Shown here: positions 8,444 through 31,279 of the stretch, in pieces | How the letters are laid out: each line of letters opens with the position of its first letter | How positions within the stretch are numbered: position 1 is the first letter of the stretch | Assembly: GCA_018830125.1 (NCBI GenBank) | Contig: JAHJSY010000001.1 | Span: 1 to 37,148 of the forward strand | Origin: Patescibacteria group bacterium | GTDB taxonomy: Bacteria; Patescibacteriota; Minisyncoccia; Minisyncoccales; GWA2-38-27 | DNA: 37,148 nt | Direction: 5' to 3' | Made by a program: the position numbers and the translations under genes | Notes under the pieces: model-generated | Told to the model about the DNA's origin: nothing | Databases searched by the model: none | What the model saw: only the letters and a program-made list of their open reading frames with translations

Positions 8444-8947
8444 ATGTTAGTAAGAAGTGAATTAAAATATTTAAGAATTGCACCAAGAAAGACCAGATTG
8501 GTTATAGCTCTGATTAATGGCAAGAAAGTTGAGGAAGCTCAGACTATTTTGAAGTTTGCAATTAAAAGAGGGGTTAATCCAATATTGAAACTTTTAAATA
8601 CTGCTATCGCCGATGCTAAGAATAATTTTCAGTTAGACCCAAGTAATTTATATATTTCAAAAATAAATATTGACGGCGGACCAATGTATAAAAGATGGAG
8701 AGCTAGATCAAGAGGGATGGCCGCTCCAATCCAAAAGAGAACTTCTCATATTACGATAGTTTTAGACGAATTAAAACCTGGCAAGAAGATTGAGAAAGTT
8801 GAGAAAGTTGAGACACCGATTATTAAGAAAGAAGAAGTCAAAACAGAAAAGCCGAAATTTAAACCAGTAGCTGAAAAGCATCCGCCAGTTGGCGGACCTA
8901 AAGAGGTTAGAGGATTGAAAAGGTTTTTTAGAAGAAAATCAATATAA
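8444..8947 (+). CDS. rplV: 50S ribosomal protein L22 with C-terminal extension
   Basis: RIAPRKTRLV, RARSRGMA, KRTSHITIV. Confidence 0.97.
   Translation: MLVRSELKYLRIAPRKTRLVIALINGKKVEEAQTILKFAIKRGVNPILKLLNTAIADAKNNFQLDPSNLYISKINIDGGPMYKRWRARSRGMAAPIQKRTSHITIVLDELKPGKKIEKVEKVETPIIKKEEVKTEKPKFKPVAEKHPPVGGPKEVRGLKRFFRRKSI
8881..8896. repeat. In-frame palindrome TCCGCCAGTTGGCGGA in rplV (PPVGG)
   Basis: One mismatch to the copies at 10424 and 30824. Confidence 0.8.
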
Positions 8948-8949
8948 AT

Positions 8950-9603
8950 ATGTCACATAAGGTTCATCCAAAAGCATATAGAATTAGAAGAATAGGCGAC
9001 TGGGATACTCGTGGTTTTTATAAATCTCATGCAGAATATCTGGAAGAGGATTTTAAGATTAGAGAATATATTGATAAAAAGCTTAAGAGTATTGGCATAG
9101 AGAAGATTGAGATAGAAAGATTTGCTACAAAGGTTAATATTATTATTTCTAGTGCTCGCCCAGGATTGATCATTGGAAGAGGCGGAGAAGGAGTAGAGTT
9201 ATTAAAAAAAGAATTAGAAGATAAAATTATTAAATCATTAAAGAAAAGTGATAAAAAGCAAGAATTAAGAATAGAAATTAGAGAAATAAAAGATCTTTGG
9301 ACTTCAGCTAGCTTAAGTGCTCAAGCAGTTGCTCAGCAAATTGAAAAGAGGATGCCTTACAGAAGAGTTTTGAAACAGTCATTAAGTAAGATTATGACCC
9401 ACAAAGATATTAAAGGAGCCAGAATAAAAATTGCCGGGAGATTAAATGGAGTGGAAATTGCCAGAAGAGAATGGGTTGGAGAAGGACAACTTCCTCGTCA
9501 AACAATTAGAGCTGATATTGATTATGCGCAGTTTGAAGCGAATTGTTCTTATGGGGTAATTGGAGTAAAGGTTTGGATTTATAAAGGAGAGAAGTTTGAT
9601 TAA
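8950..9603 (+). CDS. rpsC: 30S ribosomal protein S3
   Basis: MSHKVHP, ARPGLIIGRGG, IAGRLNGVEIAR, YGVIGVKVWIY. Confidence 0.99.
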   Translation: MSHKVHPKAYRIRRIGDWDTRGFYKSHAEYLEEDFKIREYIDKKLKSIGIEKIEIERFATKVNIIISSARPGLIIGRGGEGVELLKKELEDKIIKSLKKSDKKQELRIEIREIKDLWTSASLSAQAVAQQIEKRMPYRRVLKQSLSKIMTHKDIKGARIKIAGRLNGVEIARREWVGEGQLPRQTIRADIDYAQFEANCSYGVIGVKVWIYKGEKFD

Positions 9604-9608
9604 AAATT

Positions 9609-10016
9609 ATGTTACAGCCAAAGAAAACAAAACATAGAAAACAGTTTGTCGGAACAGGCAAGAAAGGAATTGATCAGAAATCAAATACCATTGCTTTCGG
9701 TAGTTACGGTTTAAAAGCGATTGCTGAAAAATGGGTTAATTCTCGTCAAATTGAAGCATCTAGAAAAGCTATTGTTAGATATTTAAGAAAGGGAGGCAAG
9801 CTTTGGATTAGAATTTTCCCCGATAAACCGATTAGCAGAAAAGGAACAGAAGTGCCGATGGGAGGCGGAAAAGGAGCAGTTGAGTTTTATGTTTTTCCAG
9901 TAAGACCAGGCAGAATTCTATTTGAGTTAGAAGGAATTCCAGAAAGTCAAGCTAGGGAGGCTTTTAAAAAAGCTGGAGACAAGTTGCCACTTAAAACAAA
10001 ATTCATTAAAAGATAA
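9609..10016 (+). CDS. rplP: 50S ribosomal protein L16
   Basis: MLQPKKTKHRK, LWIRIFPDKP, MGGGKG. Confidence 0.99.
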   Translation: MLQPKKTKHRKQFVGTGKKGIDQKSNTIAFGSYGLKAIAEKWVNSRQIEASRKAIVRYLRKGGKLWIRIFPDKPISRKGTEVPMGGGKGAVEFYVFPVRPGRILFELEGIPESQAREAFKKAGDKLPLKTKFIKR

Positions 10017-10017
10017 T

Positions 10018-28702: not shown

Positions 28703-28703
28703 T

Positions 28704-29183
28704 ATGGTAGAAGGAAAAAAAACAATTGAAGAAGTAACAGAAATAACAGAAGCAACAGAAGAAAAAGAATTTAATTTTGATGATCTTAAAACAGATCGCT
28801 ATTTCGAAGCGATTGGTAAAAGAAAAACAGCTGTGGCTAATGTTCGTCTTTATACTCAGGGCGACAAAACTATTTTAGTTAATGATAAAGATTATAAAGA
28901 ATATTTTCCTGATTTAGAGCTTCAGCAGATTATTGAATCAGCTTTAGAAAAAATGAATGCTGTCGGTAAGTTTAAAATTTCAGTCAAATTGAATGGAGGG
29001 GGTTTCCATGCTCAAGCCGAAGCTGTTCGTCATGGAATATCTAGGGCTTTAGTAAAACTTAATCCTGAATTTAGAAAGAAATTAAGAAGAATCGGTTATT
29101 TAACTAGAGATCCTCGAAAGCGCGAAAGAAAGAAATTCGGTCTCAAAAGAGCTCGTAAGGCTCCTCAATGGGCAAAAAGATAA
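28704..29183 (+). CDS. rpsI: 30S ribosomal protein S9
   Basis: GKRKTAVA, GGGFHAQAEA, LTRDPRKRERKKFGLKRAR. Confidence 0.99.
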   Translation: MVEGKKTIEEVTEITEATEEKEFNFDDLKTDRYFEAIGKRKTAVANVRLYTQGDKTILVNDKDYKEYFPDLELQQIIESALEKMNAVGKFKISVKLNGGGFHAQAEAVRHGISRALVKLNPEFRKKLRRIGYLTRDPRKRERKKFGLKRARKAPQWAKR

Positions 29184-29186
29184 TTT

Positions 29187-29897
29187 ATGTTACATGAGAT
29201 TATTGATAAATATTATCTAGATAAAGAAAAGGGCAAAAATAGAAGTAAAGTTCAGAATCATTTCTATGTTAGCCAGACGGGGAAATGTCCTCGTCATCTT
29301 TTCTTTAAGTTCAAAAATGTTCCTGAAAAAGAATTAGAGCCTCATATGTTAAGGTTGTTTGATCATGGAGATCATATGCATCAGCTTATTATGAGTGCTC
29401 TAACTAGCACCAGAGATATTCATGTTGTTGCCTCCGAAGTAAAAATACCTCCCCAAGAGTTAATCTCTGGGAGAGCTGATGCGGTTATTAGTGACGGGAA
29501 TCAGTTATATGTTTTAGATATTAAAAGCATGAACAGTATGATATTTAAATCTTTAACTGAACCGAAACCAGAAAACATTTGGCAAATTCAACTTTATCTT
29601 TATTATTTTAGGATTCCCAAAGGGATTCTTCTTTATGTTAATAAAGATAATTTACAACTAAAGGAATTTATCTTTGATTATGATCCTGATCAGGCTAAGA
29701 AGCTTTTGGCTGATCTAAAGTTTTTAAAAAATCAAATAGACACAAATATTGTGCCTAAGCGTTTAGAGAGTTATCCTAATAATTGGGAATGTCGTTATTG
29801 TCAGTATAAGTCAGTTTGCGATATAGGAGCTCAAGGAGAAATGAAATGGGATGATTTCAAAACTCAGGTTCAATGGGTTAACTCATCAGAAGAGTAG
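29187..29897 (+). CDS. Solo Cas4-like PD-(D/E)XK nuclease
   Basis: CPR, GD..H, SGRADA, DIKS, Q...Y, C-terminal CRYC.....C (Fe-S type). Confidence 0.85.
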   Translation: MLHEIIDKYYLDKEKGKNRSKVQNHFYVSQTGKCPRHLFFKFKNVPEKELEPHMLRLFDHGDHMHQLIMSALTSTRDIHVVASEVKIPPQELISGRADAVISDGNQLYVLDIKSMNSMIFKSLTEPKPENIWQIQLYLYYFRIPKGILLYVNKDNLQLKEFIFDYDPDQAKKLLADLKFLKNQIDTNIVPKRLESYPNNWECRYCQYKSVCDIGAQGEMKWDDFKTQVQWVNSSEE

Positions 29898-31279
29898 AGG
29901 GTTTTTTCGGATAGTAGATATAGTTTTTTATTGCTGAAAAAGATTTCATTATGTTTAAAATTTACCAAGTCAACTATATTTATTTTATCTCTGTCGTCTA
30001 ACTCGGTAACTTTTATTTTATCTTCTAAGTCAAATATTAAATGATGATCCGTATACCAGAAAACATCATTTATGTTTTCTGAAAATCTTGTTATAAATAG
30101 TTTTTCGCCTTTTTCTTTTGTTGGTTGATCATATTGTTTTTCTAGAAAAAGAACCATTAGCTCGTTATTATTATAATAAACGAGTTTTTTACTATCAGGA
30201 GAAAACTTATAACCCTTCACTGAATCGGAGAGTTTTTTAAATGATTTTGCGTCTTCGTCAAGATAATATAATTCATTGTTTTCTCTTAAAAATATATTTG
30301 AATAGGAGGTAATAATTTCATAATCAGTTTCCTCTTTATATGGGAAAGCTATTACATTTAATGTTTCTATTCTATCCCCCGAAAGATCAGACCTTAAAAG
30401 AAGTCCCGAACTATTAAGATGATAGATGTTATCATTTGTGACTAAATAGGTTACAATATTTTTAAAGATAGGGGGAGATATTTCCTCCTTGTCTATATTG
30501 ACTTCACTTAGTATCATTATTATTCTTTTCTTCTCTTCTATGATTTGTGATACAAACAATTTTCGGTCACTTTTCGGGTGGAAGTATATTTTTTCAGGGG
30601 AATCAAGAAAATCAAGATTATTTATGACGATGGGCGATTTATCTATTTCTAAAGAATAATATTTAATGTCTTCTTTTAGCCCTAATTGTAATAAGATTCT
30701 TTTTGAATCGTCAGAAAATCGTAGATCAAACAACTCGACGCCTTTAATTGAAAAGTCAATTTCATTTACTATATGACTTTTAACATCGTTTTTTAATTCA
30801 TAGAGCTTTAAGCTCCATTTATTTCCGCCAGCTGGCGGATTTTCTTCTTTAACAATTATTTTATTATTATCTGGAGAAAGAAAGAATTCTTCCACATTTT
30901 CAGCCGAGACATTGAAGTTCGGGTCTTTAGGAACTAAAATAATATTATTAGCTTCAGCTACCTCCCTCTTTTTTATTTCTAATGTTTTTTCCCAAGGATG
31001 ATAGTTCTCTTTCTGGATTATTACTTTATATGTTTTGGGCATTAAATTATCAATAAGAGCTGAGCCGAAAAAGACATCAGTTTTGTTTTTTAACTCGCCA
31101 TCAATATATATTTGAGAACCCCTGGGCCATGTTTTAAAATAGAATATTCCAGTTTGAACAATTTCTTTAGTTTCCCAATCAAAACGCCACCCCAATGAAT
31201 AAAAAACAGTTAGGGGAGCGATAACTAGAAAGGAAAGAAAGAGAATTCCAAATATTATACTTCTACTTCTTCGTGTCAT
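29870..31279 (-). CDS. PEGA-domain membrane protein with propeller-like repeats
   Basis: N-terminal TM, TG..Y.KTWP.G..IYIDG, Y.V.I.KENY.PW, repeated FSPD motifs. Confidence 0.8.
   Translation of the reverse strand: MTRRSRSIIFGILFLSFLVIAPLTVFYSLGWRFDWETKEIVQTGIFYFKTWPRGSQIYIDGELKNKTDVFFGSALIDNLMPKTYKVIIQKENYHPWEKTLEIKKREVAEANNIILVPKDPNFNVSAENVEEFFLSPDNNKIIVKEENPPAGGNKWSLKLYELKNDVKSHIVNEIDFSIKGVELFDLRFSDDSKRILLQLGLKEDIKYYSLEIDKSPIVINNLDFLDSPEKIYFHPKSDRKLFVSQIIEEKKRIIMILSEVNIDKEEISPPIFKNIVTYLVTNDNIYHLNSSGLLLRSDLSGDRIETLNVIAFPYKEETDYEIITSYSNIFLRENNELYYLDEDAKSFKKLSDSVKGYKFSPDSKKLVYYNNNELMVLFLEKQYDQPTKEKGEKLFITRFSENINDVFWYTDHHLIFDLEDKIKVTELDDRDKINIVDLVNFKHNEIFFSNKKLYLLSEKTLYSSDELTH
30824..30839. 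repeat. In-frame palindrome TCCGCCAGCTGGCGGA in the PEGA gene (PPAGG)
   Basis: Identical to 10424-10439. Confidence 0.85.

Follow-up and report, generated by a model that had tools for sequence, protein, structure and literature searches.

We analyzed a 37,148-nt stretch of the genome of a Patescibacteria group bacterium (GCA_018830125.1, contig JAHJSY010000001.1, positions 1 to 37,148; hereafter the window, and contig C8 in our numbering), in which three unrelated protein-coding genes each carry, in frame, the same 16-bp palindrome. The first host gene is rplV (8444..8947, + strand), encoding ribosomal protein uL22 (Pfam PF00237 Ribosomal_L22, E 1.7e-34, residues 7-107) with a long Lys/Glu-rich C-terminal tail. 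The palindrome lies in this tail at 8881..8896, at residue 146 of 167, where it has an AGTT centre and the codons CAT CCG CCA GTT GGC GGA, read as (H)PPVGG. The second is rpsQ (10260..10526, + strand), encoding uS17 (PF00366 Ribosomal_S17, E 4.3e-25), with an exact, AGCT-centred copy at 10424..10439 that forms part of a turn and is read as (N)PPAGG (AAT CCG CCA GCT GGC GGA). The third gene encodes a membrane-anchored PEGA-domain protein of 469 aa (29870..31279, - strand; PF08308, E 3.1e-6), whose variable loop holds another exact copy with the AGCT centre (30824..30839), likewise read as (N)PPAGG on the minus strand; we assign no strand to the copies themselves. The pattern TCCGCCAG(C/T)TGGCGGA occurs at these three sites and never in 100 dinucleotide-preserving shuffles (mean 0, maximum 0 copies), and 12 letters of the 16-mer are G/C in a window of 30-37% G+C. 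For single-stranded DNA, the predicted fold of each copy is a hairpin of about -6.5 kcal/mol, with 6 bp in the stem and 4 nt in the loop. An earlier note on this DNA, made from its letters alone, had reported the threefold in-frame palindrome in unrelated proteins, two of them ribosomal, and judged it unlikely to arise by chance in so AT-rich a stretch; coordinates, reading frames, Pfam assignments of the hosts and shuffles all agree with it.

The window holds only some of the copies present in this genome (G000; 617,556 bp, 55 contigs, 33.7% G+C). The 14-nt core of the palindrome is found there in 16 exact, 10 one-mismatch and 4 two-mismatch copies, against 0 for the reversed control, and it is the top 12-nt palindrome of the genome, with 17 copies, no other reaching more than 5. 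Every exact copy of the 14-mer also has the outer T and A, so that the unit spans at least 16 nt, and the base adjoining the palindrome is a purine in 69-82% of flanks, which amounts to a weak symmetric extension. The palindrome had been described as always preceded by A, which is true of the window, but genome-wide the adjoining base is A in only 18/32 flanks. AA stands next to the palindrome in 12/32 and 32/110 flanks, against a background of 0.13 and 0.11. We considered the replication strand as the source of this 5' AA preference and rejected it on a single case, the minus-strand PEGA copy, which tracks the coding strand and not the skew of the window. Mismatches concentrate at the centre: by manual count, the single change falls in the 4-nt loop in eight of the ten one-mismatch copies and is a transition each time.

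Open reading frames (ORFs) of at least 88 aa contain each of the 26 copies that have no more than one mismatch. The 23 host ORFs, 22 of which have clear Pfam families, belong mostly to the core machinery of the cell: uL22, uS17, bL32, LepA, three aminoacyl-tRNA synthetases, TsaD, MiaA, a KsgA-type methylase, a CCA/poly(A) polymerase, GyrA, GyrB, topoisomerase I, RecG, DnaG with three copies, FtsK with two, RpoB, FtsZ, GroEL, fructose-bisphosphate aldolase, the PEGA protein and one ORF without a Pfam match. Their frames are biased: 21 copies are read as PPAGG-type, five as SASWR-type and none in the third frame, RQLA (chi-square p 2e-6, computed on 20/5/0, the correct tally being 21/5/0). The claim that the palindrome is always read in one frame thus holds for the three window copies but not for the genome.

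The residue ahead of the motif is often Asn, and the flanking residues are hydrophilic and loop-like, as might be expected if PPAGG were selected as a protein motif, that is a turn, processing or modification site, with DNA identity being secondary. The codons speak against this. In 557 ORFs of at least 100 aa we found 15 PPAGG peptides where composition predicts 0.05, and all 15 are encoded by the palindrome or by variants at most 2 nt away, 10 of them by the exact 15 nt. The codons in use are rare ones (CCG accounts for 14% of the codons for Pro, GGC for 16% of those for Gly), and the chance of exactly these PPAGG codons given the codon use of the genome is 0.002; PPAGG is thus not kept with freely varying codons, the outcome that the earlier note had named as fatal to its own proposal. 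Five copies are moreover read in another frame as SASWR, and of 65 copies from other genomes with flanks below 45% G+C, about half (32) are outside any open frame, and for 16 the PPAGG frame is the only one open (ORF calls outside G000, here and below, are crude, running stop-to-stop within flanks of ~500-1500 nt). The repeat acts at the DNA level. The same rival explanation in its other form, copies as assembly or library artefacts, has to contend with copies that preserve reading frames, with mutated copies inherited jointly in G000 and its same-genus sister genome G002, and with identical filled alleles in contigs of two other studies. Frames, non-ORF copies, independent contigs and codon use already contradict both forms, to which we give next to no credence.

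The insertion is recent. uS17 was found in 41/41 relatives, and in an alignment of 30 sequences (the loci returned, that is G000 and 29 others) the four residues are missing from 29/29 of the other orthologues, including that of G002 at 93% identity, in keeping with the earlier statement that the uS17 loop is normally shorter. Closer comparisons come from Logan contigs, rather than reads, of other studies (runs X2, X3, X4 and X8). Filled alleles with 0 differences are seen in an X2 contig across the uL22 site and an X3 contig across both the uL22 and uS17 sites, while an X4 contig with 19 differences in 617 nt is 12 nt shorter at uS17, and an X8 contig with 75 differences in 1717 nt (~95.6% identical) is 12 nt shorter at both. 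The empty sites that the earlier note had proposed to look for thus exist at uS17 (orthologues, X4, X8) and at uL22 (X8). PEGA orthologues are present in 26/26 relatives searched, and the loop that holds the palindrome varies in length, with 4-5 residues fewer in G010 and in the same-genus G001.

The uS17 loop also holds the palindrome elsewhere: four metagenome uS17 genes, 73-76% identical to ours, carry it one codon away in the same turn (HYD-PPAGG-GEY), and these are the only palindrome-like matches in 80 loci (291 kb). Either the same permissive loop has therefore been struck more than once, or a segment has moved.

At the PEGA site, a run of ~90-100 N, 94 by its coordinates, in G002 (contig C19 ~2858-2951, locus L054) begins exactly at the expected start of the palindrome, after GAAGAAAAT, and other assemblies have several copies no more than 40 nt from the end of a contig (for instance G108:C21:9-24 and G351:C13:13-28), which suggests that the palindrome breaks short-read assemblies.

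Comparison of the 26 sites with G002, whose whole 407 kb served as reference, gives the footprint of the event. The palindrome is in both genomes at five sites and degenerate in G002, with two mismatches, at one. G000 is exactly 12 nt longer at 10 sites, 9 nt longer at two, 6 nt longer at one and 3 nt longer at one; two sites are of equal length, one is complex (-6), two have no counterpart region and one falls at the N run. Differences run both ways: of the nine G002 copies, five are the common ones, three mark sites 12 nt shorter in G000 and one could not be bridged. All length differences are multiples of three. In the clean cases, 4 nt are replaced by the 16-mer: AAAT at C3:2030, AATA at C11:9486, ATCT at C41:7501 and, in the other direction, AGAT at G002 L065:1659, with C20:1086 nearly clean. 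The remaining junctions carry 1-4 further substitutions on the 5' coding side, no more than ~8 nt away. The G000/G002 junctions show no target-site duplication; a GAGAAT repeat around the uS17 copy, which we considered as one, is not general at other sites. The palindrome had been credited with adding about five residues to protein loops: loops and tails are indeed where it lies, but the net gain is 12 nt, or four residues, and the target is not duplicated. Between the two genomes, 5/80 palindrome positions differ in the five shared copies (manual count), whose flanks are 91.7-99.4% identical (0.6-8.3% divergence); since these copies diverge like their flanks, old copies are not protected.

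Such junctions raise the question of whether transposition is involved at all. The hairpin could instead be copied into breaks or stalled forks by short-patch templated repair or template switching, or arise through methyltransferase-linked biased mismatch repair as proposed for cyanobacterial HIP1. An enzyme-free route of this kind would fit the variable length of overwritten target (net +12, +9, +6, +3 and 0), the lack of target duplication, the extra substitutions by many junctions and our failure to find a dedicated enzyme in searches for RAYT-like and small GIY-YIG genes (below). It would also fit the RNase P RNA of G000, where a native hairpin looks overwritten by a 14/16 match and the G002 hairpin differs. 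Point mutation or biased repair cannot, however, yield a 12-nt gain, and HIP1 arises by substitution without change of length, in contrast to the 10/26 sites that are exactly 12 nt longer than in G002 and the X4 and X8 alleles that are 12 nt shorter. Template switching, for its part, leaves unexplained why one sequence recurs in distant phyla and is patchy in close relatives, and there is little microhomology at the clean junctions. We regard a repair-driven origin as improbable. The RNase P RNA gene itself (C27:9424-9724, locus L372 424-724; RF00010 at 83 bits, below the gathering score, E 2e-25) contains the 14/16 match, TCCGCCAATTGGCGGA, which is an insert of 12 nt relative to the Rfam model. 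We rejected it as a case of insertion, as G002 has another hairpin at the same place; a native helix may have been overwritten by the repeat.

Nor is the element private to this genome: identical letters recur across the phylum and beyond. The exact 14-mer is present in 7/41 close relatives including G000, and was not found in same-genus G001. In the order, 93/401 genomes (72/246 genera) have the exact 16-mer, with up to 17 copies and 0 for the reversed control; across the phylum these figures are 51/301 genomes, up to 33 copies and 1 control match. At least 127 stretches of GTDB species genomes, from many phyla, also contain the palindrome. About 140 chance matches are expected in these 596 Gb, so that only AT-rich or multi-copy cases count, and we relied on copy numbers: 47 in a 0.5-Mb Shapirobacteria genome, 39 in a Gottesmanbacteria genome, 30 in another metagenome-assembled genome and 23 in the isolate Mucilaginibacter flavidus (Bacteroidota), each with a control of 0. 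Reading frames in five other genomes of the order are biased as well, the 55 copies dividing into 29 PPAGG, 15 SASWR, 4 RQLA and 7 in a short ORF or none. In some genomes the palindrome is nested in larger structures. In Mucilaginibacter it forms part of a longer repeat, CGTCATTGCGAGGAACGA-palindrome-CTRC..., often paired in inverted orientation at a distance of 112 nt, and in the Gottesmanbacteria genome it is often in the loop of CGTCATT-tagged hairpins. A GTCAT tag is found within 24 nt of 9/11 copies in the Mucilaginibacter loci examined and of 5/15 in G412, with 16/134 and 2/55 in further sets and 1/16 in G000. Our literature search found nothing with the 14-mer sequence and, judged by titles, nothing on in-frame palindrome insertions in Patescibacteria.

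A sequence kept identical across a phylum invites a functional interpretation, in which the copies are cis-sites under selection in the manner of parS, matS, Noc or SlmA-like sites, bound by a dimeric chromosome-organising or regulatory protein, or else uptake or transformation signals resembling the DUS and NTS sequences. The element is a perfect 16-bp dyad, its changes spare the stem, and its roughly 20-50 copies per genome are a number typical of dispersed sets of binding sites. Neisseria NTS hairpins also modulate transformation, through the nuclease SsnA (PMC11893778). Yet the positions are not conserved as those of parS, matS, NBS or SBS dyads are: five sites (and one degenerate) of the 26 are common to G002, and strains ~96-97% identical are empty at uS17 and uL22. 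The copies that are shared have diverged as much as the sequence around them, and a selected site would not require a 12-nt insertion each time. Uptake sequences (DUS/USS) are very dense, at about 1 per kb, and clade-wide; here, by contrast, 26 copies in 617 kb make 1 per 23 kb, and the palindrome was not found in G001 or in 308/401 genomes of the order. We see little chance that the copies are functional sites of this kind.

The observations are instead probably best explained by a minimal selfish hairpin repeat, comparable to the repetitive extragenic palindromes (REPs) and Rickettsia palindromic elements (RPEs), that is copied into new chromosomal sites. The mobile unit would comprise the 16-18 bp of the extended consensus R-TCCGCC-AGCT-GGCGGA-Y, a 6-bp stem with a 4-nt loop. 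In a typical event, 16 nt are written over ~4 A/T-rich target nt, with a net gain of 12 nt and no target-site duplication. Being palindromic, the sequence offers the same three readings from either strand. Insertion itself would be frame-blind, and selection would retain only in-frame copies tolerated in surface loops and tails, in the order NPPAGG > SASWR > RQLA(D/E). Old copies would then drift at about the neutral rate and would stay in essential genes, since nothing short of a precise deletion could take them out. Copying would take place in trans, by a hairpin-specific single-strand DNA enzyme, which is the most uncertain step; RAYT-type Y1 HUH transposases and Ssn-type small GIY-YIG nucleases are the two known classes tied to such repeats and stand as candidates here. 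The earlier note had proposed a tiny mobile palindrome like the RPEs, mobilised in trans: identity at the DNA level, recent insertion and the extra residues in loops and tails uphold the first part of this, but not the trans-acting enzyme.

A number of observations weigh against a mobile hairpin repeat, one being that no enzyme could be tied to the palindrome in the two families tested, RAYT-like and small GIY-YIG. Pfam Y1_Tnp has seven matches in G000, four in G002, and 2, 14 and 10 in three copy-rich genomes. The G000 proteins are RAYT-like, 210-243 aa long, with an H-x-H-L-L and a Y-x-x-x-N-P motif. The 16-mer flanks not one of the seven genes (all flanks checked), although one, on C47, has a copy with a variant centre 300 nt away, and with a profile built from the seven proteins we detected a RAYT-like ORF in just 1/78 palindrome loci (175 kb). 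The 401 genomes of the order divide into 60 with repeat and Y1, 33 with the repeat only, 152 with Y1 only and 156 with neither, a weak association (odds ratio 1.87, p 0.013, uncorrected for kinship), and 7/22 genomes with at least five copies have no Y1 match. The correlation with HUH/RAYT presence suggested by the earlier note is weak, and we set RAYT aside as the cognate enzyme on the lack of adjacency in G000 and the 78 loci together with the weakness of the association. As to the second family, G000 has no Ssn-type GIY-YIG gene over cut-off, either in Pfam or with a profile of our own, which led us to reject a small GIY-YIG as its cognate enzyme, and G001 has four GIY-YIG matches and 0 copies of the palindrome. 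Beyond the enzyme, the overwriting of ~4 nt without target duplication matches, to our knowledge, no described transposition chemistry; the extra substitutions at junctions mean that the inserted unit is not sharply defined; gain and loss are polarised by outgroups only for uS17 and, more loosely, the PEGA loop; and the frame counts of other genomes inherit the crudeness of their ORF calls.

Some G000 RAYT-like genes do have palindromes of their own. Two of the seven are flanked by different short palindromes; in one case, at C55:3634-4414, the RAYT-like gene (3669-4388) is bracketed by the 17-nt palindrome CAGAGACCSGGTCTCTG, which has five copies in the genome, one of them inside this very ORF at C55:3863 and in frame by inspection. 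With RAYT-like genes bracketed in this way, the genome therefore runs REPtron-like systems, with repeats other than the 16-mer studied here. In the stretch C52:405-1880, two copies of AAAGGGAAACGTCCCCTTT come after a RAYT-like gene (405-1037), and beyond them lies the only small GIY-YIG candidate of G000, a divergent GIY-like ORF (C52:1577-1880) of ~100 aa with a GIY...YVG motif, which scores 15.9 bits with Pfam GIY-YIG, below cut-off; two kinds of hairpin nuclease may sit side by side there.

Outside G000, some small GIY-YIG genes lie near the palindrome. Small GIY-YIG Ssn nucleases cut single-stranded DNA beside the CGTC-tagged hairpin repeats (NTS and the Ssn-related motifs, SRMs) that flank their genes (Chenal et al., 2025; PMC11893778). 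In four genomes other than G000, the palindrome lies 30-620 nt upstream of such genes: 120-620 nt upstream of 3/7 in Mucilaginibacter (G410), where these are probably copies of one larger repeat, upstream of one in Gottesmanbacteria G412 and of 1/3 in G280, and, as a variant, just upstream of 1/2 in the Shapirobacteria genome (G411). Among the Y1-negative, copy-rich genomes, 4/5 have small GIY-YIG genes, none adjoining the palindrome in G079. The published SRM motif, HGTCWY..RNCYNB, spans the junction left by removal of the palindrome at 0/241 copies (0/16 in G000, 0/15 in G412, and 0/55, 0/21 and 0/134 in the others), and an intact SRM lies within 100 nt of 1/241.

Set against known systems, the palindrome lacks defining features of REP-RAYT, RPE, SRM, HIP1, uptake sequences and conserved binding dyads, and we count it among none of them. 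With intragenic REPs and the REPIN-RAYT systems (PMC3733652; PMC3116915), it shares the form of a short GC-rich hairpin, the tens of copies, the patchiness in relatives and the presence of RAYT-like Y1 genes in the genome; some GTAG- or CGTC-tagged intragenic REPs are likewise wholly inside genes, many of them genes of replication and repair (Di Nocera et al., 2013; PMC3733652). It differs from REPs, which are 20-40 bp long, in being a perfect palindrome of 16-18 bp, in having no GTAG/CGTC tag and unrelated flanks in G000, and in being intragenic in 26/26 G000 copies (about half of those elsewhere lie in no open frame) where REPs are mostly extragenic. Unlike REP-RAYT, it flanks no RAYT gene in G000 and has the same letters across phyla. 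RPEs are also palindromic selfish DNA inserted in frame in many unrelated housekeeping genes, with the extra peptide in tolerant parts of the protein, but they measure ~100-150 bp, have a conserved peptide product tens of residues long and are restricted to Rickettsia (PMC10969869), in contrast to 16-18 bp, four residues and many lineages here.

The likeness to the NTS and dRS3 repeats lies in architecture and company: a 20-bp form of the palindrome, AATCCGCC-AGCT-GGCGGATT, is built as dRS3 (ATTCCC-N8-GGGAAT; PMC11893778), and, like these Ssn-related motifs, the palindrome occurs upstream of a small GIY-YIG gene in four other genomes, sits inside CGTCATT...-tagged hairpins in some and is widespread across phyla. 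It departs from them in having no SRM fit and, in G000, neither an orienting upstream tag nor an Ssn-type gene. NTS are moreover rarely intragenic, 2% of them lying inside genes in N. meningitidis (PMC11893778), unlike the G000 copies, all of which are intragenic.

Closer in size are tiny GC-rich hairpins that move in AT-rich genomes without a transposase of their own. Elhai and co-workers reportedly described in 2008 very small dispersed repeats of cyanobacteria (SDR, 21-27 nt), and some GC clusters of yeast mitochondria lie in frame in var1. These elements resemble ours in nesting within other repeats or in standing in frame in a ribosomal-protein gene; the palindrome differs in being smaller still, bacterial and spread across phyla.

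There is a bolder form of the mobile-repeat explanation, which we offer as a speculation more likely wrong than right. The 16-18-bp hairpin would be the smallest mobile DNA unit yet seen, and a hairpin-specific single-stranded DNA enzyme, RAYT-like HUH or Ssn-like GIY-YIG, acting in trans and possibly carried between phyla, would write its 16 letters over ~4 nt of exposed single-stranded target, so that essential proteins across Patescibacteria (ribosomal proteins, gyrase, RpoB, FtsZ, GroEL, primase) would steadily gain loops of four residues. As NTS do in Neisseria, the copies might in addition tag these genes so that single-stranded DNA taken up in natural transformation is cleaved.

Rickettsia, some Proteobacteria and yeast mitochondria are known to have selfish palindromes inside genes; what sets this one apart is a unit of only 16-18 bp with the same letters throughout a phylum and beyond. 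It is thus a source of loop insertions, and a measurable one, for proteins of the candidate phyla radiation. It also leaves odd gaps in alignments of phylogenetic marker genes, such as those of uS17, uL22 and RpoB, and probably breaks their assembly. It offers a clean test case for the spread of a hairpin repeat without a linked transposase, with a footprint of 16 in and 4 out as the signature that any proposed enzyme, be it RAYT, Ssn or another, must reproduce.

Viral contigs were considered as a lead and dropped, 48 of the 56 stretches having flanks of at least 45% GC, which is compatible with chance. Seven of these contigs (L402, L405, L410, L413, L421, L441 and L447) carry a phage-borne longer dyad, ...TAGTAGCAAAT-palindrome-ATTTACTTCA..., in at most three copies per contig. 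In a Patescibacteria contig (L131), a sequence resembling a 5' tRNA half stands before the palindrome and CTTTTAA after it; ARAGORN called no tRNA in this context, which may represent a disrupted or partial tRNA gene. Finally, at loci L332, L333, L334, L354, L356 and L365 (genomes G210, G407, G079 and G280), the palindrome often lies within low-complexity AAATCC/CAAAAT-type repeats that read ...KSNPPAGGQNSK..., and similar Lys/Ser/Gln/Asn-rich tails end some relatives' ribosomal proteins, such as the uS17 of locus L008; a second kind of short repeat may be growing in protein tails.

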